64,000 nucleotides of DNA, from positions 79,119 through 143,118 of the forward strand of contig JAGCVC010000001.1 of assembly GCA_017962565.1 (NCBI GenBank). Reading direction: 5' to 3'. The notes under the pieces were generated by a model that saw only the letters and a program-made list of their open reading frames with translations, ran no database searches and was not told the origin of the DNA. The first letter of the stretch is position 1; the number at the start of each line of letters is the position of its first letter. This stretch comes from Alphaproteobacteria bacterium. GTDB lineage: Bacteria; Pseudomonadota; Alphaproteobacteria; CAAHEQ01; UBA3637. The position numbers were made by a program, and so were the translations under genes. Positions 799 to 50,822 of this stretch are shown one piece after another.

Positions 799-874
799 TG
801 GGGCGTCGCCAAGTGGTAAGGCAGCGGATTCTGATTCCGCCATTTCGTTGGTTCGAATCCAGCCGCCCCAGCCA
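799..874 (+). tRNA. tRNA-Gln (anticodon CUG)
   Basis: A cloverleaf can be drawn: acceptor TGGGGCG/CGCCCCA, anticodon stem GCGGA/TCCGC with loop TTCTGAT (anticodon CTG), T-arm GTTGG-TTCGAAT-CCAGC, and an encoded 3' CCA. Confidence 0.85.
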
Positions 875-28200: not shown

Positions 28201-31164
28201 GCCACCCAAACTGGAATAAGCGCCTTTAAAACTGTTCAAAATCTTTTTTGTACCACTTGTTTCTGTCGTCATATTTAACGCACGTATATAAACGGAACCA
28301 TCATTTGTTCCACCGGCGGCCCTCATATTACCGCTACCACCATTATGCGTCAAAATAATTTTTCCTTGGTTGATGGCAGATCCCCCTTCACCTCCGGAAC
28401 CAGTGAAACCTTTAAGGTCTGAGTTGTACCCGGAGGAAGTAAGATAGATAAAGCCATCTTCACCATTAGTTTTTTTACCAGCAGATTTCATACCGTCTAA
28501 TTCTAATCCATCTGAAGACGAACGAATATCTATAATACCATTGTTCGTTTGCTCTATGTCTGCTCCACCTTTTGTATTTAAAGCACTATATGATGAACCT
28601 TTCTTATAAAATCCGCTTATTACAGTTGTAATAGCACCATTATTTTCAATAGTTGCTCCTTCACCCGACATAACAATAACAGATGAAGAAAGCATAGCTC
28701 CCAATGCATTAGAACTATGCATATACATGGTGACATCATTGTTACTTTCCGCCGAACCTTTTGCACCATCAATCACGTTCAAAATACCACCGTTTGAAAC
28801 ATCTATCGGATCGGCCGCAGAACCCAACATAATTTTTCCTTCATTTTTCAAGGTGGATTTTCCTGCGCCGGAACCGATGATGTAAACATGTTTAGCAACA
28901 TCAATACTATTCATCAATTCACCACTGACTATAATGGTTCCGTTATTAATTGCGGTTGTTCCATTTTCTGTCGATGCATCCGGTGTTGTATAAAGCACAG
29001 AAACGTTGTAAAGCAGATTTGTTAAATCCAACTTAATTATACCACTTGTATCGTTAACAACATACCCACCAGCAGTAGCCTCCATCACTCTTAATTCAGA
29101 TGCGCCCAAAGTGCCACCGACTTCATCGGGGAAAAGCGTACTACCGGCAACACCCGCAGAAACAGTACCTTTATTAGATACGACCTTTCCGGTTATACCC
29201 CGTGCAATATTTCTATCCAAAGTGAATGGATAAGCCGAAACATCAACGTCTTCATCAGAATTACCCAAAATGATATTAACGCTGGCAGTTGCATTGTTAA
29301 TTACATTTCGATCTGGTGCATAAATACCCCATACATTTAATGCTTCACCAAAAGCTCTGATATTAACTTCACCATCATTTATTACGTTAGCGCCTTTATT
29401 TGGTACATTCGGGCTGATACGACTGGCATCCATTGCAATAGACACATTTGCTGATTTAGCTGTCACGTTAATTATACCAGAGTTTGTAAATTCAGCTGCA
29501 GAGGATGCTTTCATACCAATCACGCCTTTGTTGGTCTTCGAACTTTCTATTGCATTTATCGTACCTCCAACTATCGTTATAGTCTTATTGCCATCTTCAT
29601 CTTCGCTTTCTATCGCACTACCTTCATTTCTTGCTTTTGAGGCATGAGCTAATTTAACTGTACCACCGCTTTCGGTCAAAGCTCCCTCACCGACACCGTT
29701 TGCCCATAAACCAACAGCAATTCTGCTGTCATTTCCAACAACGTTTATGATGCCATCTTCTCCATTTTTAGTTTCCAAACCCTCGGTTGCAATTTGACTG
29801 ACTGTATAGTTTTTGTCATTCCACGTCACATCACCGCTTCCGATTATCAGATTATTATCAACATCTACAAAGGCAATTTCATTTGCTCCATCTGTAAACG
29901 GTAAAGTATAAACACCGTTGACAACCTTATCACCATAAACACGTTTATCATCAGCCTCTTGTTGAGTAACATCTTCTACAACGAAATCTGATGCAACATC
30001 ACAATCTTTCTTTTTGCTGTTTGATGAAGAAAATCCGTCTTCGCAAATACAAAAACCGGTTGCAATGTTACAAGAACCATGTTTACCACATCTGGCATCA
30101 TAGCACAAATCTTTAATATCACAGTGGTCACCGGTATAACCTGGGTTACAAGTACAAACCGGTTTTACCGGATCGTCTTCCGAAAGTTCACATTGTCCAT
30201 TGGAGCCGCAATCCACATTATCGCAGACAAAGGCATCGCAACTATCCCCGCTGTAACCTCTATTACAAGTACATGCCATTCTTCTTTCCGAACCTTCACC
30301 GGTGTATTCGCAAGTTCCGTTACCATTACAGTTTTTATCGCAAGCTTGAGCAACAGAACAATCATCCCCTTCAAATCCCGGATAGCAAGTACAAGTTTTT
30401 GTTACCCTATCGCAACTACCTTGTCCGCTACAATTGTTCGGACAGGTTTTTTCTCTGGAACAATCTTCTCCTTCATAATCGTCATCACATGTACATGTAG
30501 CTGTTTCTTCATCGCACGTACCATGTCCGCTACAATCATTTGGGCAAGTTTGCTTTATGGAACAATCCGAACCTTCCCAACCCTTTGTACAAACACAAAT
30601 CTCTCTTTCTTCGTCATAAGTTCCGTGTCCGCTACAATCTTCTTTCTTGCTGCCGCCACCACCACCGCCGCCACCGGCTGCAATAGCTGCAACGCCACCG
30701 ACAACTGCGACACCACCGATTGTTGCCATACCGGCAGGGGTTGTCCAGAAACTTTCACCGGATTTTTTACGCCCTGCGGCACGAGAATTTCTACGTGTAT
30801 TTGCTGCCGTTGACTTTTCCGGACATACAGAACTGCCAACTGCGCCTGATTGAGAACAAAGTGCTTTCTTTTGTTCGGGAGATATGTTGTCCATACAGCT
30901 GTGGTTGGCATTGGCACCGGCCTTAATCAACGCATTGTAAGCTTTCACATTTTTTGACGCAACAGCTGAACACAAAACAGTTTTGCCGCTTCCGTCAACA
31001 ACATCGATGTCATGTCCGGCGTCCCTTAACTTTTGCAATCCTTGGACATCACCGCGTTGAGCATATTGGTAGACAGCCTGTCTGAGTGGTATAGCCGCTT
31101 TTGCTGTTCCCGAAATTCCCAAAACCAACGCAGCAAGAATTAATATCAATTTTTTGCGCAACAT
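25252..31164 (-). CDS. giant classical (type Va) autotransporter: signal peptide, 2 ankyrin repeats, Gly-rich segment, about 6 EGF/tenascin-like Cys repeats, long beta-helix-like passenger, S/G/D-rich 12-aa tandem repeats, and a C-terminal 12-strand beta-barrel ending in ...KWNF
   Basis: Signal MLRKKLILILAALVLGISGTAKA. ANK repeats G.T.L..A. EGF-like motifs CSGHGTC..C.C..G.G..C. The C-terminal ~280 aa have alternating hydrophobic beta-strands and a terminal aromatic Phe, typical of the autotransporter beta-domain. Confidence 0.8.
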   Translation of the reverse strand: MLRKKLILILAALVLGISGTAKAAIPLRQAVYQYAQRGDVQGLQKLRDAGHDIDVVDGSGKTVLCSAVASKNVKAYNALIKAGANANHSCMDNISPEQKKALCSQSGAVGSSVCPEKSTAANTRRNSRAAGRKKSGESFWTTPAGMATIGGVAVVGGVAAIAAGGGGGGGGSKKEDCSGHGTYDEEREICVCTKGWEGSDCSIKQTCPNDCSGHGTCDEETATCTCDDDYEGEDCSREKTCPNNCSGQGSCDRVTKTCTCYPGFEGDDCSVAQACDKNCNGNGTCEYTGEGSERRMACTCNRGYSGDSCDAFVCDNVDCGSNGQCELSEDDPVKPVCTCNPGYTGDHCDIKDLCYDARCGKHGSCNIATGFCICEDGFSSSNSKKKDCDVASDFVVEDVTQQEADDKRVYGDKVVNGVYTLPFTDGANEIAFVDVDNNLIIGSGDVTWNDKNYTVSQIATEGLETKNGEDGIINVVGNDSRIAVGLWANGVGEGALTESGGTVKLAHASKARNEGSAIESEDEDGNKTITIVGGTINAIESSKTNKGVIGMKASSAAEFTNSGIINVTAKSANVSIAMDASRISPNVPNKGANVINDGEVNIRAFGEALNVWGIYAPDRNVINNATASVNIILGNSDEDVDVSAYPFTLDRNIARGITGKVVSNKGTVSAGVAGSTLFPDEVGGTLGASELRVMEATAGGYVVNDTSGIIKLDLTNLLYNVSVLYTTPDASTENGTTAINNGTIIVSGELMNSIDVAKHVYIIGSGAGKSTLKNEGKIMLGSAADPIDVSNGGILNVIDGAKGSAESNNDVTMYMHSSNALGAMLSSSVIVMSGEGATIENNGAITTVISGFYKKGSSYSALNTKGGADIEQTNNGIIDIRSSSDGLELDGMKSAGKKTNGEDGFIYLTSSGYNSDLKGFTGSGGEGGSAINQGKIILTHNGGSGNMRAAGGTNDGSVYIRALNMTTETSGTKKILNSFKGAYSSLGGGESGATSGTGTIDIELTGSSRGYATGASYIGDENSETLLNSVNILANNLTNTSDATLILTGVSSERLYEKEQQGSLTYTNNLFISVAGQENNATYVNGMTGIDQSISNDGVIKIDVDLGKSKKHQIIGMRTQDNRYGMSIPTSWVEEPDSLISALGHVPLGNYMGVNYDGGYGHNEFKAVNNNTIQISVYGGSRNDLKDDDQITYREGIDDRYPFVIEYPESFLYDEEISPIGYTKNLSADSNVILKPLSIKNYSTGVLETFYPDVIGMATNSVAINNGTIDITISGNSDARAVGMLAYEGGFIQNSASGVIRFSGKTENFIPFYAYGTRVTLLDDKENKPHDFEINYATFSNKGTIEINGIEESHSATLGGSTKTTNPAYNPNNPGSYDPDDPNTWNPSGPGEVQTDDVGFYEADSWAREVYKWEKGSINGEEAWIMKYDEENSTVDSSTVPILDYYNVTNSGSASGGSSGDSSGSDSGDSSGDSSGGDSGDTSGDTGGSDSGDTSGDTGGSDSGDSSGDSGIPSGTSISSLSSVASSSDLSENVASIPSLMISQNIKFISEDGGSFSANGYHLLGEVMAGASIVQKGNEDVYVADGKGSGAFVGDGDYSDMSVISSTPLFDASYALNENNSNGIDIVMTRKPFEEVVDNSNLAQFLESNYVAGNNEEFFNKLKSFETVSSLLQGLDDLTGKQMLTRFNFEDITMMREMNFDMNEKLFHDKKQQFALSGSVSPMAFKGDTGSSSKYGLYNRHIGNFSVGLGVAFTNIYSDNSHDSDNRRDNAYQLIAPIGYKTHGFNLVSSARMGYARGNYTRTGFENKSYKGTLEKRLFGLTNEARYPLSVGEWTVEPAAEFNVLGYTQRGSEDEREFSLNVKSQSTYSVEAGIGLYLTKEEQLSKDSNLKLNVGVAAYHEFADPYKVDVEMNGMRGHFTLRDEDRSDNRGVIRSGFDYKTGPYTFYGSMTSYIDHELRANAKTGFKWNF
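26640..26830. repeat. 36-bp coding tandem repeat (about 5 copies, TATCGCCTGAATCACTTCCGCCAGTATCTCCCGAGG) encoding SGD(T/S)SGD(T/S)GGSD units in the autotransporter passenger
   Basis: Exact copies start at 26649, 26685 and 26721 (period 36), then degenerate copies. It is in-frame inside 25252..31164. Confidence 0.65.
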
Positions 31165-32223: not shown

Positions 32224-35200
32224 ATGAACTTAAAATTATCAAGAACAGCATTACGTGAGTTGACCAGACTATATCGTGGTGTATTATTTGCGGCGATCAT
32301 TTCAGCCGCATTTGTCGCATCCGGCGCAAGAGCTGAAGTAACAGAAGTTTCCACATGGGATGCTTTGAAAACAGGATTAACAGCTGGCTCAGATATGAAA
32401 ATGACTGGCAATATTACCATCTCGGAAGGTCTTGGAATTACCGATAAGGATAATACTGTTGACATGGATGGTAAAACTTTATCTGGAGATGCAGGCAACA
32501 CAAATGGATTTTCTATTTTTGGAGGATCTTTAGACCTTAAAAATGGAGGCACTATTTCCGACATTAACAGAAATGGTTCGACAGCTGGTGTTTTCAATGT
32601 ACAAGGGGGAGATCTTTCCTTGACAGGTGGTGATTTTACTTTCAAAAATAATACATCTACAAGAGGTGTTATCCAAGTTTGGGAAAGTGCCAATCCTTCT
32701 GAAGCTACTTTAACAACTGACGTAAATTCATTAGTGTTTAATAACAACAGTTCAACAATGGGTGGTGCTATTTATCATGAACAAAGGTATTCTGATTCTG
32801 ACGTTGTTTCTGAATTAAAAGGAAGTACTATTAAATTCGAAAATAATAAAGCTACTGCAGGTAACGGTGGTGCTATTTTGAACGTAGTTGGGGATATTTC
32901 AGTTCTCGGTGATACAAACGAGTTTTTGGGAAACAGCGCAAAGAACGCTTCAACAGACACTGTTGATAAACATTACAAACGTGGTGGTGGTGCAATTGCC
33001 AATGCTTCAGGTGAAAGCTTATATGATGCTACAATGATTGTTGGTAAAGCAACCAGCGTTAATAAATTTGAAGGAAATACTTCAATAACAAACGGCGGTG
33101 CAATTATGAACCGTGCTGTTGATGCCGATAAAAATGTAGATTTAACCATTAACGGTACATCAACATTTACTGGTAATACTGCAAAAGAAAAAGGTGGTGC
33201 GATTTACAATATTCAACAAGCTGGTCGTACTGCAACATTAACAATCAATGGTGCAGCAACATTCTCTGGTAACACAGCCAATGGCGAAGCCAATGATATT
33301 TACAATGATGCCGGTACAGTTAATTTGAATGCCGCTGCTGGTAAAGAAATCAGCTTGGCAGGTGGTATTGATGGTGCCGCAGGTACACTCAATGTCAATG
33401 GCTCCGGTACAACCGGTACAGTCAGTGTTGCAAATGCTTTGAAAAACCAAACTGTAAGTGTTACAGCCGGTGAATTGGCGTTATCAGATGTCAATTTGAC
33501 AGGTTCAACAGTCGGTGTCGCTTCCGGTGCAACACTCAATACAATTGATGGTAAGATCAATAATTATGAAGGAATTACTTTGGCTGCAGGCGCTAACTTG
33601 AAAGCCGATGTCGGTTTGGCAGGTAGCGGCTCACATGATGCTTTCACAGCCGCCGGTGCTTTCAATTTGACGGGTTTAAGCATTACTTCCGATGCAGAAT
33701 CTGAAACAACCGAATTAACATTGTCAGATCAAGCTGTTACAGTTGCCGCTGGTTTAAGCACTTATACAAGTAAACAAAAATACACCGTAGCAAACAGCGA
33801 AACAACCGGTAACATTAAACTTACCGGTTTGGGCGATGGCACAGGTGGTTTGGGTGCCGCATCCGCTGATACTTCTTCCCCAAACGTTACTCATACAATG
33901 ACGGATGACGAAGGATTTGGCGGCGGAACTGTTGCTGCAACCAACTTCGAATTAAATGGTAACAATAAATCCGTTGATCTTGATGGTGATTTGAATGTTG
34001 CTTCCGGTAAGACCTTCACAGCACAAAATGTCACATTCGAAGGTAGTAACGATATTTTGAACGCTGGTACAATGATCATCAAAGATTCAAATATCGATGT
34101 TGACCTTACAAACAACGGTGTTTTGATTTCTGACCCGACAACATATTCTGGTACAGTTACCAACAACACGACTGCTTCATTTACTGATGATACATTTACA
34201 TCAACAGCAACGTTGGCCAACAATGGTACAGCAAGCTTAACAGATACAACGTTTGAAACCGGTTCAAACATTAACGGTACCGGTACTTTGCAGTCCGTTG
34301 GCGGGACAAACGTTATCGGTGCTACTGTTACAGGTCAAGCTATCGACATCCAAGGCGGATCAACTTTACAATTGATTGAAGGTAGTAACATTGATGGTGC
34401 TGCTGTTACAACAAGTGCCGGTGGTGGTACGTTGGATTTGCGTAACGACCGTCTTGATACTTTAGGTTCAACAACATTGGGTTCAAACTTAAGTGTTAAG
34501 ATGGATGCTAACTTGAGCACAGGCGCAACAGATGCTTTCGGATCATTTACCTCTAATGGTAACACAGTTACTGTTGATGCTTTGGAATTGTTAGCATTAG
34601 GTAGTGATCAAACACTTACATTGGCCACTGGTGCTGATGCAGGTGCAGTGACATTGTCAACTGATGCTATTACAACATTACAAACTTACTACGGCACAGT
34701 TACCGACAACGGTGATGGTACAGTAACATTGAGCGGAAAGAAAACAACTGCTGATGCTGATTTGGTTGGTACATGGGGTACAGGCGATGTCATCAAAGCT
34801 TACGATGCAAGTGACAAAGCCAACACTTCCGTTGGTGCTAACTTGATGGCTTTGGATGCTCAAAAGGTAAATAAGTCAGATGTTTATACAAGTGTAATTG
34901 ACGATACTGCAGTTTCAAATGCTGATGAAAAAGTTGTTTCCGTTAAATCATTCCAAGATTCTATCCAAAACTTAATGGATAATGTATCAATCGAATGGCA
35001 ACAACAACAACAATTCGCTGATGGAATTGCTATTGGTACCGGTGGTACTGCTGTACAAATAAGTCAAAATACAGACGGTACTTTGAACGTCAATAAAGAC
35101 ATCATGATCAATGGTAACAAAGCTTTGACGACAGCAAGTGCTTTGGATGGTGCTAACTTGACAAACGGAACAGTTGCAAAAGCAGCTTTAGCTTCCGGTG

Positions 35201-38181
35201 TCCAAAGTTCTTTGGATAAAGCAGATTCAGCTATCCAAACGGTTAAAGTTAATGGCACAGCGTTGACAGTAACTTCAAATGCAGTTGACATCTTAATTGC
35301 AGAAGGTGCTACAAATGGTACAATCAAAGTGAATAATGTTGATGTTGCTGTTCATGGTTTAGGTTCAGCTGCTTACGCAGATGCTTTGACTGGAACAATT
35401 GCTGCAAACACAACATCAAATGATTTGGTATCTGCCGCACAAGTTGTTGGTTATGCACAAGCACAATTGAAGAACGATGAAACTACACCGGCTGATATCA
35501 GCTCAACCGTTTTGACAACAGTACGTGCATCGGGTTCTGCTTCAGATACAGCTTTGGTAACAGAAAAAGCTGTTGCAACTGCAGTAGAAGGTGCAACATC
35601 TGATATTCTTGATGGTACATCAGTTTTCACCGGTTTTACGATGACAAACAATGCCTCAACACCGGCTAATGTAACAATTACCAAGATTGATGATGGTAAC
35701 CACACTGACTCTACAACCACAACATTGGCTACAACTGCTACAGTGACAAAGGCTGTCACCAATTTGAAAGCCGCTAATAATACATGGACTGGTACAAACA
35801 CGTTCAATTACAGTGACGATGCTGCTGGTGCTGGCGTAACGGGCTTCTCCGTAACAGCAACAGATACTGATGCTGGAAACTCCGGAGCAAACGCTTCCAC
35901 AACGTCTTTGACCGTCAACTCCAAAACCGGTGTGACAATTACCGGTGATTTAACAGCAAACGGTAATGTCACTTTGGGTGATGCCGCAGCTGATGTGATT
36001 ACGGTCAACGGAACAGCAACATTTGGTCAACAAATCAATGCTACGAACGGAATTAAAGCCGGAACAAACACAACATTGGTTGATGGCACATTGACAGTTG
36101 GCGATGGATCAACATCCAGCACATTGACACATAATGCTTTGTCAACAGCAACCGTTAATGCTACGACAGTTAATGCCGGAACAAATGGAACAGCTTTAGC
36201 TGACAATTCATTAACATTGCATGATGGAACATATTCAACGGTATTGAGTGCTGTTCAAAAAGGAACAACTACATCCAGTTTGTTGAATGTCAGCACAGGT
36301 ATGAACGTCAATGGTGATACAACAGTTGCCGGAACATTGGGTGTAACAGGCAATACAACAGTTGGTGGTACATTGACTGTCGGTGGTGCAAATGCAATTA
36401 CCGGCACAGCTGCTTCCGGATCAACTCCTGCCACATTGGATATGAACAAAAATGCTTTAACGAATGTACAAGGTTTGACATTAACTGATGGTGCTACTAC
36501 AGCAAAGACAGCTTCTTTGACTGTTGATACAACCAGTGGTGACTTGAGTGTTAATAAGACTATTGATGCAACTCAAGGTGTCAAGTTCGGCGATGGTACA
36601 ACATTGGATAGCGTAGCAATGACTTCTGCTGATCACGGTACTGCGGATATTAAAGCTGATGCAACTGGTCAAGGTGCTGTTGTAGCTAGTGTACAAACAG
36701 TTGCTGCAACACGTGACGCAATTAATGACGACGTTACAACCGTTTTAGGTGGTATCTATAAAGTTGCGGGTACTGGTGCTGTTGTTACTTATGACAATAC
36801 AGCTCTTACAGGTGCAACCGCAACAACGCCGAACCTCGGTAAAGGTTTTGCTGATGGACAAACAAACTTGTCAGCGGCTTTACAAAATTACGCTGGTAAC
36901 GTTGCTGCTGCAACTGGTTTGACATACAACGCTGCGGGAGCAAACACAACGACATATGTAGTAAAGACTGCAACAGATGCAGCCAATTATGCTGACTTCG
37001 CAGCTGGCACATCTTTGAAAGCTGCTGTTGATCAAACCAGCAAGAATATCGGTCTTGGAATGACATCCGTAACGGCACGTTCTGTAACAGGTGGTACAAC
37101 AGCTGCAACACAAACGGTCAACCAAAACTTGTCTGCTTTGGATGCTACAATCGGTGGCGATATGACATCCGTAACAACACGTTCTGTAGCGGGTGGTACA
37201 ACAGCCGTGACACAAACAGTCAATGCTAACTTGTCTGCTTTGGATGCCGCAATTGGTGCTGATATGGCGGTCATTGGCGATACAGGTACAGGTATTGCAA
37301 ACAGAGCAACTGCTGCTTTCCAAACAAAGAAAGCAAATACGATTAACCAAAACTTGTCTGCTTTGGATGCTGCTATCGGTGTTGATATGACAGCAATTGG
37401 AACTGGCCGTACAACAACAGCTTTCCAAACAGCTGCCGGAAACAGCGTCAATGCCAACTTAACAGCTTTGGATGCTACAATCGGTGCTGATGTGACAACA
37501 ATTGCTTCTACAACAGTAAAAACAGGTGCTGGAGACAACAACGGCGTTGTTGCAACAAACACAGTTAACCAAAACTTGTCAGCTTTGAATGCTGCTGTCG
37601 GTGACATTGCTACATTAAGTGCTGGTACAGGTGCAACCGGTGACGCAATCACCAATGGAACAGGCACCGCTGCCACAACGGTTGTTCAAGCTTTGAACAA
37701 CATCGATGCAACAATGGGTAACATCCATGGCTTGTATGATGGCTCAACAGTTAACAGTTCTGTTATAGCATCAACAGTCAATGGACATTCTAACTTGGCT
37801 GTCGGAACAACAGTTGAAGATCATTTGGTCAGCATTGATAATGCCATCGGCGATCGTAATCAATTTGATCAATCTCACTACATGCAAGCTATTGATTCTG
37901 TTGCAGATGCTATGATGAGCGTTGACCACAATTTGTATCGTGTCGAAAAAGAAATGCGCGGTGGTTTTGCTTCAATGGCTGCTATGTCCGCTTTGGTACC
38001 AAACGCACGTGCCGCAGGCGATACTCAAATTTCAGTGGGTGTCGGTGCTTATCGTGATCACCAAGGTATGGCTCTCGGTGCATTCCATTACTTCAACGAC
38101 AACATCTTGGCCAACGTTGGTGCTTCCTATGGTGGCGACAAGAGTACGGTATTCCGTGCTGGTGTTACATTCGGTTGGTAA
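32224..38181 (+). CDS. giant trimeric-autotransporter-type (type Vc, YadA-like anchor) adhesin with N-terminal Pmp-like (GGAI / FxxN) repeat region and Thr/Ala-rich stalk with 35-aa repeats
   Basis: ATG lies 2 nt after the ompA-like stop, with GGAAGGAAAA RBS. Long signal MNLKLSRTALRELTRLYRGVLFAAIISAAFVASGARA. Repeated F.(N/G)N....GGAI(Y/L/M)N motifs. The C-terminal ~75 aa (GGFASMAAMSAL...ISVGVGAYRDHQGMALGAFHYFNDNILANVGASYGGD...FRAGVTFGW) match the 4-strand YadA-type membrane anchor ending in W. Confidence 0.8.
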   Translation: MNLKLSRTALRELTRLYRGVLFAAIISAAFVASGARAEVTEVSTWDALKTGLTAGSDMKMTGNITISEGLGITDKDNTVDMDGKTLSGDAGNTNGFSIFGGSLDLKNGGTISDINRNGSTAGVFNVQGGDLSLTGGDFTFKNNTSTRGVIQVWESANPSEATLTTDVNSLVFNNNSSTMGGAIYHEQRYSDSDVVSELKGSTIKFENNKATAGNGGAILNVVGDISVLGDTNEFLGNSAKNASTDTVDKHYKRGGGAIANASGESLYDATMIVGKATSVNKFEGNTSITNGGAIMNRAVDADKNVDLTINGTSTFTGNTAKEKGGAIYNIQQAGRTATLTINGAATFSGNTANGEANDIYNDAGTVNLNAAAGKEISLAGGIDGAAGTLNVNGSGTTGTVSVANALKNQTVSVTAGELALSDVNLTGSTVGVASGATLNTIDGKINNYEGITLAAGANLKADVGLAGSGSHDAFTAAGAFNLTGLSITSDAESETTELTLSDQAVTVAAGLSTYTSKQKYTVANSETTGNIKLTGLGDGTGGLGAASADTSSPNVTHTMTDDEGFGGGTVAATNFELNGNNKSVDLDGDLNVASGKTFTAQNVTFEGSNDILNAGTMIIKDSNIDVDLTNNGVLISDPTTYSGTVTNNTTASFTDDTFTSTATLANNGTASLTDTTFETGSNINGTGTLQSVGGTNVIGATVTGQAIDIQGGSTLQLIEGSNIDGAAVTTSAGGGTLDLRNDRLDTLGSTTLGSNLSVKMDANLSTGATDAFGSFTSNGNTVTVDALELLALGSDQTLTLATGADAGAVTLSTDAITTLQTYYGTVTDNGDGTVTLSGKKTTADADLVGTWGTGDVIKAYDASDKANTSVGANLMALDAQKVNKSDVYTSVIDDTAVSNADEKVVSVKSFQDSIQNLMDNVSIEWQQQQQFADGIAIGTGGTAVQISQNTDGTLNVNKDIMINGNKALTTASALDGANLTNGTVAKAALASGVQSSLDKADSAIQTVKVNGTALTVTSNAVDILIAEGATNGTIKVNNVDVAVHGLGSAAYADALTGTIAANTTSNDLVSAAQVVGYAQAQLKNDETTPADISSTVLTTVRASGSASDTALVTEKAVATAVEGATSDILDGTSVFTGFTMTNNASTPANVTITKIDDGNHTDSTTTTLATTATVTKAVTNLKAANNTWTGTNTFNYSDDAAGAGVTGFSVTATDTDAGNSGANASTTSLTVNSKTGVTITGDLTANGNVTLGDAAADVITVNGTATFGQQINATNGIKAGTNTTLVDGTLTVGDGSTSSTLTHNALSTATVNATTVNAGTNGTALADNSLTLHDGTYSTVLSAVQKGTTTSSLLNVSTGMNVNGDTTVAGTLGVTGNTTVGGTLTVGGANAITGTAASGSTPATLDMNKNALTNVQGLTLTDGATTAKTASLTVDTTSGDLSVNKTIDATQGVKFGDGTTLDSVAMTSADHGTADIKADATGQGAVVASVQTVAATRDAINDDVTTVLGGIYKVAGTGAVVTYDNTALTGATATTPNLGKGFADGQTNLSAALQNYAGNVAAATGLTYNAAGANTTTYVVKTATDAANYADFAAGTSLKAAVDQTSKNIGLGMTSVTARSVTGGTTAATQTVNQNLSALDATIGGDMTSVTTRSVAGGTTAVTQTVNANLSALDAAIGADMAVIGDTGTGIANRATAAFQTKKANTINQNLSALDAAIGVDMTAIGTGRTTTAFQTAAGNSVNANLTALDATIGADVTTIASTTVKTGAGDNNGVVATNTVNQNLSALNAAVGDIATLSAGTGATGDAITNGTGTAATTVVQALNNIDATMGNIHGLYDGSTVNSSVIASTVNGHSNLAVGTTVEDHLVSIDNAIGDRNQFDQSHYMQAIDSVADAMMSVDHNLYRVEKEMRGGFASMAAMSALVPNARAAGDTQISVGVGAYRDHQGMALGAFHYFNDNILANVGASYGGDKSTVFRAGVTFGW
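37060..37640. repeat. coding tandem repeats of about 105 nt (35 aa) in the adhesin stalk, each carrying N-Q-N-L-S-A-L-D-A-x-I-G
   Basis: Near-identical units start at 37060 and 37161. Further degenerate copies carry AACTTGTCTGCTTTGGATGC at about 37225, 37341, 37450 and 37572. Confidence 0.55.
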
Positions 38182-44643: not shown

Positions 44644-44720
44644 TGGTGTCCTTGGCGGGAGTCGAACCCACGACCTTGGGATTAGGAATCCCACGCTCTA
44701 TCCTGCTGAGCTACAAGGAC
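44644..44720 (-). tRNA. tRNA-Arg (anticodon CCU)
   Basis: The reverse complement folds as GTCCTTG-TA-GCTC-AGCAGGAT-AGAGC-G-TGGGA-TTCCTAA-TCCCA-AGGTC-GTGGG-TTCGACT-CCCGC-CAAGGAC-A-CCA. The anticodon loop TTCCTAA gives CCT. Confidence 0.85.
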
Positions 44721-44810: not shown

Positions 44811-45221
44811 ATGTTGATTCATGCTTCATGTGTTAAGTGGAAAAACAAGGGGATTTTACTTATAGGAGAGTCCGGTTGCGGTAAATCTACCGGGGCATTA
44901 GCTTTAATTGAAAAAGGTGCCACCCTGATTGCTGATGACTACATCAATATAGATATTCAAAACAATACCGTTTTTGCCGTTTGTCCCGATACGATTACGG
45001 GAAAAATAGAGGTGCGCGGAGTTGGTATTGTTAATATGAAATCTTTACCGCAAACACAAATTGATTTGGTTATTGATTGCAAACCGGATTTTGCGTCTGT
45101 TCCGCGTATGCCTGAAGAAAAAACACAAAATTTTTCTAATAAAGAAGTTCCCTTATATGCTCTTTGCCCTTTTGAAAACATCTTTGCACAAAAGGTTTCT
45201 CTAATCCTTGCAAGTTTGTAA
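44811..45221 (+). CDS. hprK: short-form HPr kinase/phosphorylase (C-terminal kinase domain only, alphaproteobacterial type)
   Basis: P-loop GESGCGKST. About 136 aa. Located upstream of EIIA-Man and NPr, as in the alphaproteobacterial regulatory PTS. Confidence 0.7.
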   Translation: MLIHASCVKWKNKGILLIGESGCGKSTGALALIEKGATLIADDYINIDIQNNTVFAVCPDTITGKIEVRGVGIVNMKSLPQTQIDLVIDCKPDFASVPRMPEEKTQNFSNKEVPLYALCPFENIFAQKVSLILASL

Positions 45222-45286: not shown

Positions 45287-45685
45287 ATGATAGGCATTTT
45301 ATTAGTTACTCACGGTGATTTGGCCAAAGAAATGATTGGCGCGATGGAACACGTTGTCGGCAAACAAGATCAATTGGATATGGTTTGCATCGGCGAAAAC
45401 GATGACGTTGAAAAAAGTCGTCTGGATATTATAGAAAAAGTCAAACAATTAGACACGGGGGACGGTGTTTGCATAGCAACGGATATGTTTGGCGGTACAC
45501 CTTCAAACTTAGCTATTTCGGTTATGAAAAGCGATAAAGTGGAGGTTGTTGCCGGTTTAAACTTGCCAATGCTGATTAAATTGGTTCGTTTGCGTAATTT
45601 ACCGTTAAAACAAGTAGCGGAAGAAAGTGCACAAGCAGGACGCAAATACATCAATGTTGCCTCGGAGTTATTAAAAAATGAGTGA
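45287..45685 (+). CDS. PTS EIIA component, mannose/fructose class (regulatory PTS)
   Basis: MIGILLVTHGDLAKEMIGAMEHVVG matches EIIA-Man, including the phosphorylatable His of THG. Confidence 0.7.
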   Translation: MIGILLVTHGDLAKEMIGAMEHVVGKQDQLDMVCIGENDDVEKSRLDIIEKVKQLDTGDGVCIATDMFGGTPSNLAISVMKSDKVEVVAGLNLPMLIKLVRLRNLPLKQVAEESAQAGRKYINVASELLKNE

Positions 45686-45962
45686 TGAAGAAGCATTGGT
45701 TGAAGTGTTAACCATTTCAAATAAAAAGGGGTTGCACGCACGTGCAGCTTCTCTTTTTGTCAAACAAGTCGAACAATATGATGCAAAAGTTTGGGTTGAA
45801 AAGGACGGACAGCGCGTTTCCGGTAATTCAATCATGGGATTAATGATGTTGGCTGCGGCAAAAGGTACTCAAATCAAAGTATTATCCACCGGCAATCAAG
45901 CAAAAGAAGTCAGCAAATCCTTGTCTGACTTGGTTAATGACAGATTTCACGAAGAAGAATAA
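45678..45962 (+). CDS. ptsH: phosphocarrier protein HPr/NPr
   Basis: GLHARAA contains the His15 site. 94 aa. Overlaps the EIIA stop. Confidence 0.8.
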   Translation: MSDEEALVEVLTISNKKGLHARAASLFVKQVEQYDAKVWVEKDGQRVSGNSIMGLMMLAAAKGTQIKVLSTGNQAKEVSKSLSDLVNDRFHEEE

Positions 45963-45963
45963 T

Positions 45964-47142
45964 TTATTTTGCAGTCCTTTTAGGTGTTTGATAAAGCAAT
46001 TTTTGAATATAATACCCTTGAAACAAAGATATTCCGAGCGACTGTCCCCATTCAATTGCTCTTTTGTCATCAACATGGCATAAAATAATATGTCTTGCCT
46101 CATTTTCTTCAATACTTTTTATAAAGTCAGCTTCTTTTGAACGAGACAATAAATCTTCATTCCAAACCAATTTAATAAATTCCGCACCCAAACTTTCACG
46201 ACAAACAAACGACAAAGAATCTCCGGAAACCATATCTACACACAACCGATATCCCTGCTCTGTAATAAAACTGCGTGCGGCTAAAAAAGCAGAAAGGTTA
46301 CTGAATATATCGTGTTGCTTAATTTCCAATAAAATGCTTTTCCGACAAAGCGGATCTATGCTTTCGTTAAAATTTTGGAAATCCGGACTTAAAATTGTTT
46401 TGACAGCAATATTTAAACTGAAGTTTTTACGAAAAGCGCCGGCATCATGGTGCATCATATTTTCCAAAACACGCTTATCTAATGTTTCCAACAACCGATC
46501 CAACAACCACGGAGACTGGTAAATATCAACGGTCGGACACAATGCTTTTTTCAAATCCGCCAAAGCAACATAAATTTCTTCAAATAATTCAATAGGTTGG
46601 GCACGCCCGACCAAAGCACAAACAGCTTGCCGGCGCATTAAGCTGGACAAATCAGCCTGTCTTAATGATTTTTCCAATTGAGCCAATAGTGCCGGTGTAA
46701 AAGGCATAGAAAAATGTGTCTCCGGCAACACCGGCTGTAATTCTTGAACCCTTGAGGAAATAAAAGAGCTGTGGGAAGATGTTGATTTTGTTTCCTGTAT
46801 TAACGCTTTCAGTTTATCCAAATCATTTTTCAAGTGGTATAAATTATAAAAAGGACTTTTTCCTTTTAAATCACCGGTTAAAGAAACGCCCAAAATAAAT
46901 TGTATTTTAATCAACAAAGCGGCTATATCATCTTGATGATTTTCCGGAAAATATACAAAAATGCCTTTGACTTGATTATCCTCAAAAAACTGACATTTCT
47001 TTTCATGTTGTGCAACGGACAGCAAATCTTTTACTTCATGAAAATAATTTTCATCAATACATAACTGTAGCATATAACCTTTTGCCATAGTCGGCGTTAA
47101 AGCATCCAAAAAACGGTATAAAGGACTGCCGTTTAAAATCAT
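45964..47142 (-). CDS. hypothetical protein with a degenerate EAL-like C-terminal domain (paralog of the upstream gene)
   Basis: The C-terminus ...ILCHVDDKRAIEWGQSLGISLFQGYY resembles the EAL-domain tail (AEGVE...LGCD.AQGY), but the DDFGTG and EAL catalytic motifs are absent. Confidence 0.4.
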   Translation of the reverse strand: MILNGSPLYRFLDALTPTMAKGYMLQLCIDENYFHEVKDLLSVAQHEKKCQFFEDNQVKGIFVYFPENHQDDIAALLIKIQFILGVSLTGDLKGKSPFYNLYHLKNDLDKLKALIQETKSTSSHSSFISSRVQELQPVLPETHFSMPFTPALLAQLEKSLRQADLSSLMRRQAVCALVGRAQPIELFEEIYVALADLKKALCPTVDIYQSPWLLDRLLETLDKRVLENMMHHDAGAFRKNFSLNIAVKTILSPDFQNFNESIDPLCRKSILLEIKQHDIFSNLSAFLAARSFITEQGYRLCVDMVSGDSLSFVCRESLGAEFIKLVWNEDLLSRSKEADFIKSIEENEARHIILCHVDDKRAIEWGQSLGISLFQGYYIQKLLYQTPKRTAK

Positions 47143-48443
47143 AATTTCACCTCTTTCAGCGGAACATATGCATCCAAATGTGCTTCATGAACACATGCAG
47201 AACGCAAAGTGCCGTCAACAGCACTCCTGCGCAAACGACAATCAGCCAATGTACATTCTTGCCCAAAAGTACAGGTGTTTTTACAAATAGCGGCCAACAA
47301 AGTATCGACAAAATGCCCTTGAAATAAAGATATTCCCATTTGACGACCGAAAAGCAGAGCTTCTTCAGAACCGCAGCGTGACAAAATAATTTTTTTACCC
47401 GTTTGTTCCTTTAGAAATTTTGTTAACAACGGTTTGTCTTCCGATAATTTAGCAGACCAAAAAATCTTAAAACAATCCGCATTAAAAGATGTCATTGGAA
47501 TCATTTCCAACTCATTGATTGTAATAGCATCCAAAGCCACCAATATATTATTTTGTTTTAATTTAGTGTAGGCTTTACGGTATAAAGCCAAATCATGTAA
47601 AATATCTGACATTTGAAATTCAATCATCAGTTGGCGACCGGACATTTTGGGCAACATCTTATCAAATATTGGCAAAAAAATGCTTTGAACATTCAAGTTA
47701 ATGCTAACTAAAGACGGCCATGCTTTCAAATCTAAATCACACAAAGCGGATAACATTTGCTTATCCAACGTATCCATTAACATTGTGAACAACGCCTTAT
47801 CTGCCGTCAAATTTAAATGAGGTGCATACGCATTTTGCAGTTCAAGCAAAGAAGTAAAAAATTCCTGGCCGACTTCTTCATTTTTTTTATTTTTTTCAAA
47901 AGAAATTATACTTTGTCTGCGAATAAAATTTTTACTTTTGTTTTGTTCTATTTGATATAACAATTTTTCCAAAACTTCGGGCGTTAATTCCTTCACCAAG
48001 GCTGTTTCGGATAAATCTGAAACAACAGATTCCAAATTTTTGGGTTGAGCCTTAACTTTGGGTTGCAACAAATCAAGCAATGTATCTTTATCTTTGTCTA
48101 AAAAGAAAATTTGTTCAAAAGCTCCGGCAGATTGAGAAGAAATGAAAAAATCATCCGAAAACAAACCTTTTATTTGATACAAAATATCATCAATTGCATC
48201 CAAAACAGGATTTGCCGTTAACAACAAAAAGTCATGGTTGGAAAGCAAAAACAACCGAGCTTGCGCATGATTGAGTAACGGTTCGAAAATCTTTGAAACA
48301 ATTTCCAGTTGGTGATAGCCGCGATTTTCCGGCTGTAATTTTGACATTGCCACATAAACAGCACAAAAAGGCACATTCAAAGTTTCAATTCTTTGAATTG
48401 CTTCTATTGCTTGTTCTTCCGGTGACAAAATCTTTTTAGACAT
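47139..48443 (-). CDS. hypothetical protein with a degenerate EAL-like C-terminal domain
   Basis: INLNVQSIF...LMIEFQMSD...ILVALDAIT...ADCFKIFWSA...IILSRCGSEEALLFGRQMGISLFQGHF runs parallel to the EAL motifs (VNLS..Q / LELEITE / IALDDFG / IDKSF / AEGVE...QGY) with catalytic residues replaced. Overlaps the downstream paralog by 4 nt. Confidence 0.4.
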   Translation of the reverse strand: MSKKILSPEEQAIEAIQRIETLNVPFCAVYVAMSKLQPENRGYHQLEIVSKIFEPLLNHAQARLFLLSNHDFLLLTANPVLDAIDDILYQIKGLFSDDFFISSQSAGAFEQIFFLDKDKDTLLDLLQPKVKAQPKNLESVVSDLSETALVKELTPEVLEKLLYQIEQNKSKNFIRRQSIISFEKNKKNEEVGQEFFTSLLELQNAYAPHLNLTADKALFTMLMDTLDKQMLSALCDLDLKAWPSLVSINLNVQSIFLPIFDKMLPKMSGRQLMIEFQMSDILHDLALYRKAYTKLKQNNILVALDAITINELEMIPMTSFNADCFKIFWSAKLSEDKPLLTKFLKEQTGKKIILSRCGSEEALLFGRQMGISLFQGHFVDTLLAAICKNTCTFGQECTLADCRLRRSAVDGTLRSACVHEAHLDAYVPLKEVKL

Positions 48444-48550
48444 ATCTTTTCCTTTTTGCTTATCGTATGAGAAAATATGTTAAAAGTAAAGTAAAAGTTA
48501 CATGATATTTTTTATTTGACTTTTTTCTTTTTCATTGCTAGCATTTTTTT

Positions 48551-49363
48551 ATGATTAAGAAGTTTTTATTTTTGATTTTCTTTTCTTTTCCAGCCTTTGC
48601 TTTTACCATTCCGGAAAATTTAACGCAAGGGATGCTCGTCTATGGAACTGCGGACGAAAATGAAGAAATCTATTACGAAGACTTACCTGTTCCCGTTTAC
48701 AACGGCAAATATGTTTTTGCTTTGGGACGCAATGCACCGGATGAAATTCAAATAACAATTAAGCGCGGTTGGTTTGACAGTGAAAAAAAGCTGTTTAAAG
48801 TTGCACCGCGTGAATGGCAAAAAGATGTTTTTGACGGTGTACCAGAAAAGACAATGAAACCATCTGAAGAAGATTCAAAACGTATTGCCGAAGAACAAAA
48901 ATTATTGGACGCAGCGCGTGCAAAAAGGCCCATCAAAAACGGTTTTCCGACATGTTTTATCAAGCCGGTAGAAGAAACACGCATATCATCCGCGTTCGGT
49001 TCACAAAGAATCATTAACGGTGTTCCGCAAAGGCCACACAGTGGTGTTGATATGGCGGCTCCCGAAGGAACTCCCGTTAAAGCATCCGCAGACGGCGTTG
49101 TTATTTTAGCTCATGACGATTTATTTTATACGGGCGGAACGGTTTTAATCGAACACGGAAATGGTGTTCAAACGGGGTATTCACATTTAAGCAAAGTTGA
49201 TGTCAAAACAGGCGATATCGTTAAACAAGGTGATGTTGTCGGATCAGTCGGTATGACCGGTCGCGCAAACGGACCACATTTACACTTTACATTGGCTTGG
49301 GAAAATATCCGTGTTGCGCCGGAGTTTGAATACTGTACAAGCTGTCCCTGTGGGGACAAATAA
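48551..49363 (+). CDS. M23-family (LytM-type) metalloendopeptidase, secreted
   Basis: Signal peptide. HSGVDMAAP..GTPV.A...G.V and GYSHLS...G.VGMTG...GPHLHF are the M23 zinc-ligand motifs. Confidence 0.8.
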   Translation: MIKKFLFLIFFSFPAFAFTIPENLTQGMLVYGTADENEEIYYEDLPVPVYNGKYVFALGRNAPDEIQITIKRGWFDSEKKLFKVAPREWQKDVFDGVPEKTMKPSEEDSKRIAEEQKLLDAARAKRPIKNGFPTCFIKPVEETRISSAFGSQRIINGVPQRPHSGVDMAAPEGTPVKASADGVVILAHDDLFYTGGTVLIEHGNGVQTGYSHLSKVDVKTGDIVKQGDVVGSVGMTGRANGPHLHFTLAWENIRVAPEFEYCTSCPCGDK

Positions 49364-49427
49364 TCATTGCTATTTTCATAAAAATTTGTTATTTTACAAC
49401 TATAATATAAATGTAAAGGAAATTACT

Positions 49428-50822
49428 ATGTTAAAATTATTCAATACTCGTACACATTCTTTGGAAGAATTTAAACCGTTGGTTGGAAATCAAGTTCGTA
49501 TGTATGGTTGCGGACCGACTGTTTATAACTATGCACACATTGGCAATCAAAGGGCATATATTTTTTATGATTTACTGCGCCGTTATTTAAAATATAAAGG
49601 CTATGATGTTTTGTTTGCCATGAATATCACGGACGTTGATGATAAAACTATTCGTTCTTCACGTGAAGCCGGTAAATCTTTGCGCGAATATACAACTTTT
49701 TATATGAACGAATTTTTTAAAGATTGGGAGGTTTTAAATATTGCTCGTCCTGATAAAGTTATTCGTGCTACGGATGAAATTGAAGCCATGGTAGATACCA
49801 TTGAAATTTTAATGCAAAAAGGGCATGCTTACAAAGCCGCCAGCGGTGATATTTTCTTTAAAATTTCGACTTTTCCGGATTACGGAAAAATGGCTAATAT
49901 TGATGCCAGCAAATTAAAAGTAAATGCTGACGGTCGTTTGGCAGACGAATATGAAAAAGAAGATGCTCAAGATTTTGCTTTATGGAAAGCATGGACAGAG
50001 GCTGATGGAGATGTTTACTGGGATACGCGTATCGGTAAAGGTCGCCCGGGTTGGCATATTGAATGTTCAACCATGAGCCATAAATATCTGGGTCAACCGT
50101 TTGATATTCATACCGGCGGTGTAGATTTAATTTTTCCACACCACACTAACGAAATTGCTCAATCCGAATGCGCTTACGGTTGCTTGTTTGCAAATTTCTT
50201 TGTGCATAATGCTCATTTGATGGTAAACGGTGAAAAAATGTCGAAAAGCAAGCACAATTTCTATACCGTTCGTGATTTAATTGCTAAAGGCTATGACAAA
50301 CGTGCTATCCGTTACGAATTTTTAAAATCCAGCTATCGTCAAACATTGGATTTTATCGAAAGCAATATGGCCGGAAACAAATCCGTTATTGACAGATTGG
50401 ATAATTTTATGGAACGCTTAAATACTGCAAATGGTAGCGGATGGAATGAAACGGATAATATTGTTCAAACAGCACGCACAAATTTTGAAGAAGCAATGGA
50501 TAATGACTTGAATACACCGGAAGCATTCGCCGCTATTTTTGAATTGATGAACACGGTTAACAAAAACTTTGATTCATTATCGGCTGATGATGCCAAAAAA
50601 ATTACCGATACAATAAAATCGTTTGATACAGTATTGGGCGTTTTACCGGAAAAACAAGAACGTACTTTAACGGCGGAAGAACAAGCTTTGATTGACAAAC
50701 GACAAGCCGCTCGTACAGCAAAAGATTGGGCAACGGCAGATGCCTTAAAAGCCGAATTGATTGCTCGCGGAATTGAAGTCAAAGATACACCGACCGGACC
50801 ACAAATTCGTTTTGTAAATTAA
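49428..50822 (+). CDS. cysS: cysteine--tRNA ligase (true start ATG 49428 with AAAGGA RBS; the 49311 start is an ORF-track extension)
   Basis: Class-I HIGH (AHIGN) and KMSKS motifs. Zinc-binding Cys residues. Full-length CysS architecture. Confidence 0.93.
   Translation: MLKLFNTRTHSLEEFKPLVGNQVRMYGCGPTVYNYAHIGNQRAYIFYDLLRRYLKYKGYDVLFAMNITDVDDKTIRSSREAGKSLREYTTFYMNEFFKDWEVLNIARPDKVIRATDEIEAMVDTIEILMQKGHAYKAASGDIFFKISTFPDYGKMANIDASKLKVNADGRLADEYEKEDAQDFALWKAWTEADGDVYWDTRIGKGRPGWHIECSTMSHKYLGQPFDIHTGGVDLIFPHHTNEIAQSECAYGCLFANFFVHNAHLMVNGEKMSKSKHNFYTVRDLIAKGYDKRAIRYEFLKSSYRQTLDFIESNMAGNKSVIDRLDNFMERLNTANGSGWNETDNIVQTARTNFEEAMDNDLNTPEAFAAIFELMNTVNKNFDSLSADDAKKITDTIKSFDTVLGVLPEKQERTLTAEEQALIDKRQAARTAKDWATADALKAELIARGIEVKDTPTGPQIRFVN

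Follow-up and report, generated by a model that had tools for sequence, protein, structure and literature searches.

A tandem pair of divergent EAL-like proteins in an alphaproteobacterium as a candidate non-hydrolysing receptor of c-di-GMP

What might two adjacent proteins do that resemble EAL phosphodiesterases of cyclic di-GMP (c-di-GMP) in their fold and have lost part of the catalytic residues? This question is raised by two minus-strand genes, here called gene A and gene B, in a 64,000-nucleotide (64-kb) stretch of an Alphaproteobacteria bacterium (contig JAGCVC010000001.1, positions 79,119 to 143,118), referred to as the window throughout. Degenerate GGDEF-EAL proteins belong among the main c-di-GMP receptors, and few types of them are understood (LapD, FimX, TipF and CsrD). 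An earlier note on this DNA, made from the letters alone, had described the two genes as tandem paralogs with degenerate EAL-like C-terminal domains and had suggested that they act as c-di-GMP receptors. The explanation that we prefer, tentatively and with slightly less than even confidence, is that the pair would be a non-hydrolysing receptor of c-di-GMP, or of a related dinucleotide, which may act as a heterodimer and in which the C-terminal tail of B may form a metal site.

Gene structure, folds and conservation of the pair

The two open reading frames (ORFs) were found exactly where the earlier note had placed them. Their features, with the source of each assignment, are the following:

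45964-47142, minus strand: gene A, the downstream paralog, 392 aa, with a reduced GGDEF-like domain, a linker and an EAL-like barrel
46789-47142, minus strand: residues 1-118 of A, GGDEF-like alpha/beta domain (AlphaFold2 (AF2) model, alignment)
46711-46788, minus strand: residues 119-144 of A, disordered linker (predicted local distance difference test score (pLDDT) below 50 at 119-143)
45988-46710, minus strand: residues 145-385 of A, divergent EAL-like barrel (profile against PDB, hhalign, residue census)
47139-48443, minus strand: gene B, the upstream paralog, 434 aa, with a GGDEF-like domain, a linker, an EAL-like barrel and a four-Cys tail
48060-48443, minus strand: residues 1-128 of B, degenerate GGDEF-like domain (AF2, Foldseek, hhalign)
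47994-48059, minus strand: residues 129-150 of B, disordered interdomain linker (pLDDT below 50 at 130-149; columns variable and poorly conserved)
47292-47993, minus strand: residues 151-384 of B, divergent EAL-like barrel (Pfam, homology to A, Foldseek, residue census)
47142-47291, minus strand: residues 385-434 of B, tail with C391-x5-C397-x4-C402-x14-C417, putative Zn or Fe-S site
47139-47142, minus strand: ATGA, in which the stop of B (TGA) shares bases with the start of A (ATG), read from the sequence
47148-47153, minus strand: GAGGTG, Shine-Dalgarno-like, for gene A and within the 3' end of gene B, read from the sequence
48450-48454: AAGGA, Shine-Dalgarno of gene B, read from the sequence
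48444-48550, no strand: AT-rich divergent intergenic region of 107 bp between B and an M23 peptidase gene, read from the sequence

A and B share 24% identity over about 300 aligned residues (E 4e-27) and are paralogs, as had been proposed. The motif G(I)SLFQG(Y/H), which the earlier note took for the end of both proteins, is present in A and B alike; A runs 14 aa and B 56 aa beyond it. The 4-nt overlap of the two genes could be read directly, the GAGGTG lies 5 nt upstream of the A start, and the same gene order was found in all 80 related loci described below, so that co-expression, another suggestion of that note, or translational coupling of A and B is supported. The promoter of a B-A operon must sit in the intergenic region at 48444-48550, to which we assign it by position alone, since a promoter and terminator scan of 45500-48700 gave nothing above shuffled expectation. 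No convincing transmembrane segments were detected in A or B, whose maximal 19-residue hydropathy values (1.35-1.61) fall within folded helices. B is 100% identical to the NCBI entry 'MAG: hypothetical protein J6Y03_00485 [Alphaproteobacteria bacterium]', where MAG stands for metagenome-assembled genome, and the window thus comes from an alphaproteobacterium that is uncultured and low in GC. Databases use two names for proteins of the family, 'hypothetical protein' and 'EAL domain-containing protein (putative c-di-GMP-specific phosphodiesterase class I)', of which the latter is probably wrong as to the activity.

With Pfam, the EAL domain (PF00563) matched A with 36.4 bits (E 4.7e-9), above the gathering score of 31.3, and B with 23.8 bits, below it; many B orthologues carry a precomputed PF00563 match. 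The alignment of A spans profile positions 58-235 of 236, that of B is similar (about 58-235), and Pfam found no domain besides EAL in either protein. A family profile searched against PDB retrieved the EAL domains 8pps and 5xgb at E 2e-6 and Vibrio cholerae LapD at E 0.013; it was needed here, for single-sequence phmmer searches of A and B against PDB returned nothing relevant. AF2 models built from family alignments reached a pLDDT of 84.6 with a predicted template modelling score (pTM) of 0.77 for A and a pLDDT of 85.2 for B. They contain only two domains, with the barrel opening with a helix and two strands around residue 150. In Foldseek searches against PDB, the best matches of the A model were the GGDEF-EAL proteins PA0575, MorA, DosP and LapD, and those of the B model MorA, PA0575, RbdA and LapD, in both cases at E of about 1e-11, and the alignments to these dual-domain structures cover both domains over 420-460 columns (420-450 for B). 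EAL-only chains (FimX, the LapD EAL domain, YahA, PA3825, RocR and TBD1265) followed at E 1e-7 to 1e-8 with target-normalised template modelling (TM) scores of 0.55-0.66, and the probability was 1.00 for dozens of EAL structures. The models therefore give A and B a predicted TIM-barrel-like EAL fold. The degenerate EAL-like C-terminal domain of the earlier note is thus borne out by the Pfam match of A and by the fold predicted for both proteins; it had named a lack of similarity to the EAL hidden Markov model together with a non-TIM-barrel fold as grounds for giving up its view, and both the similarity and the fold were found. PADLOC anti-phage models gave no match to A or B at E up to 0.01, and an NCBIfam match to ThcB4 (E 0.05) was discarded as noise.

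The N-terminal part of each protein, which had been described as some 230 aa unrelated to known domains, is instead resolved in the models into a domain of about 120 aa with a GGDEF-like fold and a linker of about 25 aa, so that the barrel begins near residue 145-150 and not 230. The domain comprises about 115-128 residues with the topology beta-alpha-beta-beta-alpha-beta-alpha; in the A model its elements are the strands 23-27, 51-54, 61-65 and 99-103 and the helices 31-46, 70-84 and 104-117. A comparison by hhalign with a small GGDEF alignment (E. coli DosC, DgcJ, DgcP, CdgI, CsrD and DosP plus one sequence from locus L088, see below) aligned 129 columns at P 2.5e-4 and placed SNHDF of B in register with GGDEF, while the control comparison with EAL domains gave P 0.12. 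The GGDEF position reads SNHDF in B and is of the DNQVK type in A, so that the cyclase motif is gone, and no RxxD I-site was seen by eye upstream of it. A profile of the N-domain had no significant match in Pfam or PDB, be it to GGDEF (PF00990) or to any other domain, and the GGDEF assignment is for this reason based on the full-length Foldseek alignments and one hhalign comparison. On these models, the N-domain is best described as a degenerate, catalytically dead GGDEF-like domain, and the absence of the cyclase motif and of a visible RxxD makes the predicted architecture of both proteins a degenerate GGDEF-like domain followed by a degenerate EAL-like one. In the clade of the window, the alignment reveals further erosion of the A N-domain, with a deletion in the 'S.L...NR' region and loss of 'LFxxDP'.

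The distribution of the pair was followed in a genome scan with an 8-sequence alignment and one genome per species, which gave 243 loci with relatives; the best 80 were retained, and labels such as L001 refer to related loci from this genome comparison. A B-type gene lies directly 5' of an A-type gene on the same strand in 80 of these 80 loci, typically with 0-12 nt between the B stop and the first possible A start. The hosts are human, ruminant and other gut Alphaproteobacteria known from MAGs, including 'Proteobacteria bacterium CAG:495', as well as Magnetospirillum, Paramagnetospirillum, Phaeospirillum, Novispirillum, Terasakiella and Telmatospirillum, and the GC content of the pair-bearing genomes ranges from about 35% to more than 60% (30-44% in the window). 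An exhaustive profile search yielded 923 clusters at 50% identity with E <1e-30. Its top match, P0147, is a protein of 712 aa in which a complete B-like protein (16-412, without the Cys tail) is fused to an A-like EAL domain (432-690, without the N-domain). P0147 may be a genuine Rosetta-stone fusion or the product of two genes merged in gene calling, and as a B-A fusion it hints that the two EAL domains act together. Distant members of the family are single-copy and lie in other contexts: between asmA and the prepilin peptidase gene pilD (two loci), between ftsB and grpE, after rpsT, and, in L088 (7001-9116), between a flagellar operon (fliF, fliG, fliN, motA, a sigma-54 activator gene and flhA) and a GGDEF-domain gene. 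L088 is the only locus examined in which a c-di-GMP cyclase-type gene adjoins a family member. Since the distant relatives are single-copy, the pair goes back to an old duplication of a gene from the alphaproteobacterial core, and its two copies have stayed together as an ordered operon ever since; the family appears to be vertically inherited through much of the Alphaproteobacteria. No description of the paired family turned up in literature searches on three subjects: tandem degenerate EAL proteins of Alphaproteobacteria or Magnetospirillum, heterodimers of degenerate GGDEF/EAL proteins, and Fe-S EAL proteins.

These data also bear on the trivial explanation that A and B are decaying, non-functional duplicates of an EAL gene whose mutual resemblance is incidental. 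The weak Pfam scores, with B under the gathering score, would agree with decay. However, both ORFs are intact, the pair persists in every one of the 80 loci across the whole range of GC contents, the family counts 923 clusters, and many residues are invariant in both paralogs. Conservation of this kind refutes decay, to which we attach practically no probability, and the candidate was dropped.

The tail of B is modelled with a pLDDT of about 78-89 over residues 381-430 and falls below 50 only at 432-434. Among 81 B sequences (the window and its 80 relatives), C391, C397 and C402 are present in 79 and C417 in all; the first three are lost in both Novispirillum loci (L070 and L079), which are part of the 81, and a B-type protein from a 5.3-Mb genome that was examined separately (L081) lacks the whole tail. 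Both losses indicate that the tail metal site is dispensable in some lineages. A tail profile matched Nab2-type CCCH zinc fingers in PDB weakly (E 0.0064), and Pfam Nab2-zf4 was hit by 1 of 20 members at E 0.028, which is negligible support. In Magnetospirillum-type tails the spacing is exactly C-x5-C-x4-C-x3-H, whereas the clade of the window has Arg or Lys at the His position; this substitution and the fourth invariant Cys suggest a Cys4 site in the latter. The C-x5-C spacing also recalls Rrf2-type clusters. The tail is probably a small metal-binding module of the Zn or Fe-S kind.

Pocket residues and what they allow

A residue census was made on 81 A and 81 B orthologues, from the 80 genomes plus the window, and motifs were mapped through PDB profile alignments and by hhalign against E. 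coli PdeL, PdeH, CsrD and YdiV. In both paralogs, 80-81 of the 81 sequences keep the Gln of 'YQP', the Glu of 'EAL', an Asn, the first Glu of 'ExxE', the Asp five residues past that Glu, the first Asp of 'DDFG', the Lys of 'KxD' with an invariant Trp after it, and the final 'QG'. Conservation is complete, at 81/81 in each paralog, for the EAL Glu (E189 of A, E194 of B), the Asn and the first Glu, the first Asp (D303/D305) and the Lys (K324/K326). The residues kept in the window are Q172, C175, E189, N244, E273, D278, C301, D303, K324, W327, D358 and Q375 of A, and Q177, E194, N249, E275, D280, D305, K326, W329 and Q375 of B. Lost from 100% of both paralogs are the Arg of EALxR (Ser or Ala in its place), the second Glu of ExxE (K, L, Q or M), the second Asp of DDFG (mostly Gly, Met in A of the window), the Asp of KxD (hydrophobic or other) and the Glu of EGVE. 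The last position is always basic (R, K or H); in the window it is H356 in A, where most species have R, and R356 in B. In addition, loop 6, DFG(T/A)GYSS, has given way to a shorter D-G/M-(L/V)-(T/S/N) segment. Each paralog has residues of its own: C175 (80/81), C301 (81/81) and D358 (81/81) in A, and C357 (79/81) in B, in which the counterpart of A D358 is Asp in 54 of 81 sequences and G358 in the window.

The two-metal mechanism of EAL phosphodiesterases (RocR, TBD1265, BlrP1) provides the frame for assigning these residues to metal 1 and metal 2. On this alignment, the four ligands of metal 1 (E, N, E and D) and the Lys survive, and the ligands of metal 2 are gone together with loop 6. The statement of the earlier note that the DDFGTG, EAL and metal-binding residues are lacking is thus only half right: the EALxR Arg, the second Glu and second Asp, and the EGVE Glu are indeed lost in all sequences, whereas every sequence still has the Glu of EAL, the Asn, the first Glu and first Asp, and the Lys. 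None of the 81 A or 81 B sequences has the full catalytic set of an active EAL phosphodiesterase, and we infer that canonical two-metal hydrolysis of c-di-GMP cannot be carried out by this barrel.

A precedent for such a residue pattern is TipF of Caulobacter crescentus, in which EAL has become ESF and DD has become D-K; it shows no phosphodiesterase activity and binds c-di-GMP with a dissociation constant of 0.4 uM (PMC3792480). Binding and function of TipF require E211, D331 and K352, while R215L and E396A are tolerated (PMC3792480). The positions essential in TipF are kept in A and B and the dispensable ones are lost, and the domain architecture is like that of LapD and FimX; together these two points make a receptor the best explanation of the pair. 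The receptor role put forward in the earlier note is accordingly plausible in so far as the residues that TipF requires are invariant and those specific to catalysis are lost. In the mechanism that we propose, B and A would form a two-gene operon whose cytoplasmic products act as a heterodimer. The pocket, with metal-1 site, Lys and Gln intact and a conserved basic residue at the position of the catalytic Glu (EGVE), might take up a single divalent cation together with c-di-GMP, or with a (di)nucleotide close to it, and not turn the nucleotide over. Binding would shift the conformation of the heterodimer and the signal would be handed to a partner, and the four-Cys tail of B could supply a Zn or Fe-S site with a structural or sensory role.

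The same pocket may be read as that of an atypical one-metal phosphodiesterase in which the conserved Arg or Lys stands in for metal 2. One paralog might then be catalytic and the other regulatory, and the pair could turn over c-di-GMP slowly, as a trigger enzyme, or act on another phosphodiester substrate. Conservation as strict as that of the metal-1 ligands, the catalytic Lys and the always-basic EGVE position in both paralogs is typical of active sites. A offers an extra acid, D358, two residues past the EGVE position (Asp in 54/81 B), and the contrast between A (D358, C175, C301) and the B of the window (G358) recalls pairs of active and inactive subunits. On the other hand, RocR and TBD1265 reportedly lose their EAL activity when the second Asp or the EGVE Glu is mutated, and loop 6 is replaced by a shorter loop in the pair. 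TipF, with its similar residue pattern, did not hydrolyse c-di-GMP even after 24 h (PMC3792480). We consider an enzyme of this kind improbable, at about one part in five of our belief.

Several observations weigh against the receptor that we prefer. The strict invariance of metal 1 and Lys could equally mean residual or different catalysis; it fits binding and slow catalysis alike and does not discriminate between them. LapD and FimX have lost metal ligands, and the family of A and B keeps the metal-1 site. Canonical EAL domains have an Arg in contact with the c-di-GMP phosphate; the aligned sequences lack this Arg, though it is dispensable in TipF. The register of the 'EAL' Glu is itself derived, as hhalign placed this residue at E185, four residues before E189; E185 was rejected, for it is not conserved, whereas E189 is invariant and stands at the equivalent second-strand position, and for these two reasons E189 was taken. 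Heterodimerisation is deduced from gene order and a single fusion protein only. Finally, no ORF with a GGDEF motif was found in the 64-kb window.

Genomic neighbourhood

By Pfam, the gene order around the pair is secA, a short hprK, the gene of EIIA-Man, an HPr-family gene, the A-B pair, a divergent M23 peptidase gene and cysS. The genes of the phosphotransferase system (PTS), given for context only, and the tRNA genes of the window are:

44811-45221, plus strand: short hprK (Pfam Hpr_kinase_C)
45287-45685, plus strand: EIIA-Man gene (Pfam EIIA-man)
45678-45962, plus strand: HPr-family gene, the 'npr' of the earlier note (Pfam PTS-HPr), convergent with gene A
44644-44720, minus strand: tRNA-Arg(CCT), between secA and hprK (Rfam/ARAGORN)
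799-874, plus strand: tRNA-Gln(CTG), near the start of the window (Rfam/ARAGORN)

The HprK protein has 136 aa, consists of the C-terminal kinase domain only and covers positions 9-86 of the 171-position domain model. The stops of the HPr-family gene (TAA, 45960-45962) and of gene A (TTA on the plus strand, 45964-45966) converge 1 nt apart, and as there is no intrinsic terminator between them, the two transcripts must overlap or end inside the opposing gene. Across the 80 loci, the partner paralog is the only neighbour that is conserved between clades. The hprK, EIIA-Man and HPr-family genes, whose presence next to the pair is confirmed for the window, adjoin it in just 9 of the 80 loci, all of the nearest gut clade, either downstream and convergent (the window and L001) or upstream and divergent (L003, L005-L011). 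They are not next to the pair in Magnetospirillum-type loci, where the neighbours are hldE, queG, an ApaH-like phosphatase gene and an ABC-2 transporter gene. The link to the PTS is a clade-specific lead and not evidence.

This lead also bears on the idea that A and B are a regulatory adaptor that needs no nucleotide, a pseudoenzyme of the same sort as CsrD or YdiV/RflP that works purely through protein-protein or protein-RNA contacts and that, in the gut clade, could receive its input from the HPr-family protein, EIIA-Man and HprK, as CsrD does from EIIA-Glc, with a possible connection to CtrA. Among E. coli sequences, CsrD matches the family profile best. CsrD has a degenerate GGDEF-EAL module, gives no response to c-di-GMP and is switched on by unphosphorylated EIIA-Glc, which binds its EAL domain (PMC5027483), and MshH, the CsrD homologue of V. 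cholerae, binds EIIA-Glc too (PMC3509428). The PTS genes occur beside the pair in two arrangements, and the tail of B resembles RNA-binding CCCH fingers (E 0.006). Furthermore, ctrA (381 bits with the NCBIfam CtrA equivalog, whose cut-off is 350) was identified in the gut clade of the window: in L002 (3983-4672) and L004 (401-1087) it precedes gene B on the same strand by 38-64 nt, and it lies 2-5 kb downstream of the pair in five more loci (L003, L005, L007, L009 and L010). No ctrA homologue was detected in the 64-kb window.

Other data speak against an adaptor. The PTS genes adjoin the pair in that one clade, and EIIA-Man is unrelated to EIIA-Glc. The NCBIfam CsrD equivalog NF008281 scored 20.4 bits on A, over residues 217-326 only and against a cut-off of 663, and did not match B; A and B were rejected as CsrD, the RNase E specificity factor, on this score. 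Moreover, several metal-1 and Lys positions are lost in the CsrD and YdiV sequences, whereas they are kept here in 80-81 of 81. Their invariance in 162 sequences argues for a pocket for a small ligand or metal under selection, and against a purely protein-binding pseudoenzyme. We regard an adaptor as unlikely, while giving it about a quarter of our belief; it and the one-metal enzyme are the two rivals of the receptor that we take seriously.

The M23 peptidase gene on the other side of the pair had been taken in the earlier note as a possible link to envelope remodelling. An M23 gene occurs within 6 kb of the pair in just 6 of the 80 loci, at varying distance, and does not adjoin it in the closest relative, so that the link is unsupported; it was dropped, the position of M23 not being conserved.

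In another gut clade, a cluster that looks like a sensory hydrogenase module lies divergently upstream of B in about 24 loci (e.g. L019, L031, L035, L045, L060, L063, L065, L078 and L080). Its products are a protein resembling monomeric [FeFe]-hydrogenases (TIGR04105, 474 bits), a phosphatase of the SpoIIE/PP2C type and a small, ferredoxin-like 2Fe-2S protein similar to NuoE.

A bolder picture would make the pair an ancient heteromeric pseudo-GGDEF/EAL machine whose pocket, with one metal and an Arg where metal 2 would be, binds or processes a ligand other than c-di-GMP, whose Cys4/CCCH finger on B senses redox state, metal or RNA, and which is a core alphaproteobacterial regulator tied to the CtrA circuit and the regulatory PTS. 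We mention it as a long shot, with a probability that is low.

Elsewhere in the window, two giant divergent ORFs of 1970 and 1985 aa (25252-31164, minus strand, and 32224-38181, plus strand), both with signal-peptide-like N-termini, occupy the sole stretch of raised GC (0.40-0.44 against 0.30-0.38 elsewhere) and are possibly adhesins or autotransporters, or acquired DNA. The longest cysS ORF has a GTG start and overlaps the end of the M23 gene (49311-49427), and the Pfam match begins only after an internal ATG at 49428; this ATG is the better candidate for the start. Rfam and ARAGORN found nothing in the 64-kb window beyond the two tRNAs.

With respect to its possible significance, the family is unusual in its obligate ordered paralog pair, its half-retained, charge-swapped pocket, its Cys4 tail and its wide, core-like distribution. 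It is large, soluble and minimal, and present both in gut lineages and in the genetically tractable Magnetospirillum. Should the pair prove to be a heterodimeric sensor of a nucleotide, it would offer a clean model of how pairs of pseudo-enzymes read second messengers, and a metal or redox input into alphaproteobacterial signalling could emerge through the Cys tail. For the window itself, the annotation as 'hypothetical protein' or 'EAL phosphodiesterase' is corrected.

Comparison with known systems

Canonical EAL phosphodiesterases (RocR, TBD1265, PdeL/YahA and PdeH) have the same fold as A and B, with TM scores of about 0.55-0.65, and share with them the residues Q, E, N, E, D, K and Q. Of the canonical features, the pair lacks the EALxR Arg, the second Glu, the second Asp, the KxD Asp, the EGVE Glu and loop 6.

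The tail of B has its closest counterpart in CCCH fingers of the Nab2/ZC3H14 type, which have the same C-x5-C-x4-C-x3-H spacing as Magnetospirillum-type tails. However, the match is borderline and Cys-driven, and B has a fourth invariant Cys 14 residues further on.

CsrD resembles A and B in its degenerate GGDEF-EAL module and is the E. coli sequence closest to the family profile; the regulation of its EAL domain by a PTS protein parallels the PTS genes beside the pair in the gut clade. It differs in being membrane-anchored, with a HAMP-like linker, and in having lost the Asn and both metal-site Asp from its sequence, and its partner EIIA-Glc belongs to another family than EIIA-Man.

In LapD and FimX, a dead GGDEF domain is followed by a dead EAL domain, as in A and B, and structures of LapD (6pwj, 6pwk, 3pjw) and FimX are among the best Foldseek matches of the pair. 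LapD also carries periplasmic, transmembrane and HAMP modules, and FimX REC and PAS modules. According to Pfam, hydropathy and the AF2 models, A and B have neither the transmembrane-HAMP modules of LapD, nor the REC-PAS modules of FimX, nor the transmembrane and coiled-coil modules of TipF. Their GGDEF-like domain is much shorter (about 115 aa) than that of LapD and FimX and not detectable by sequence, and neither LapD nor FimX is encoded as a paralog pair, unlike A and B.

TipF, compared here through its published residue description, is alphaproteobacterial like the pair. Its essential EAL Glu, first Asp and Lys are the residues that are invariant in A and B, its second Asp is lost, as it is in A and B, and the Arg and the EGVE Glu that TipF can dispense with are those that A and B have lost. 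A flagellar connection may be seen in the single-copy relative of L088, which adjoins flagellar genes. TipF differs in having two transmembrane segments and a coiled coil ahead of its EAL domain and no GGDEF-like domain, and it is encoded by a single gene, with neither a paralog pair nor a Cys tail.

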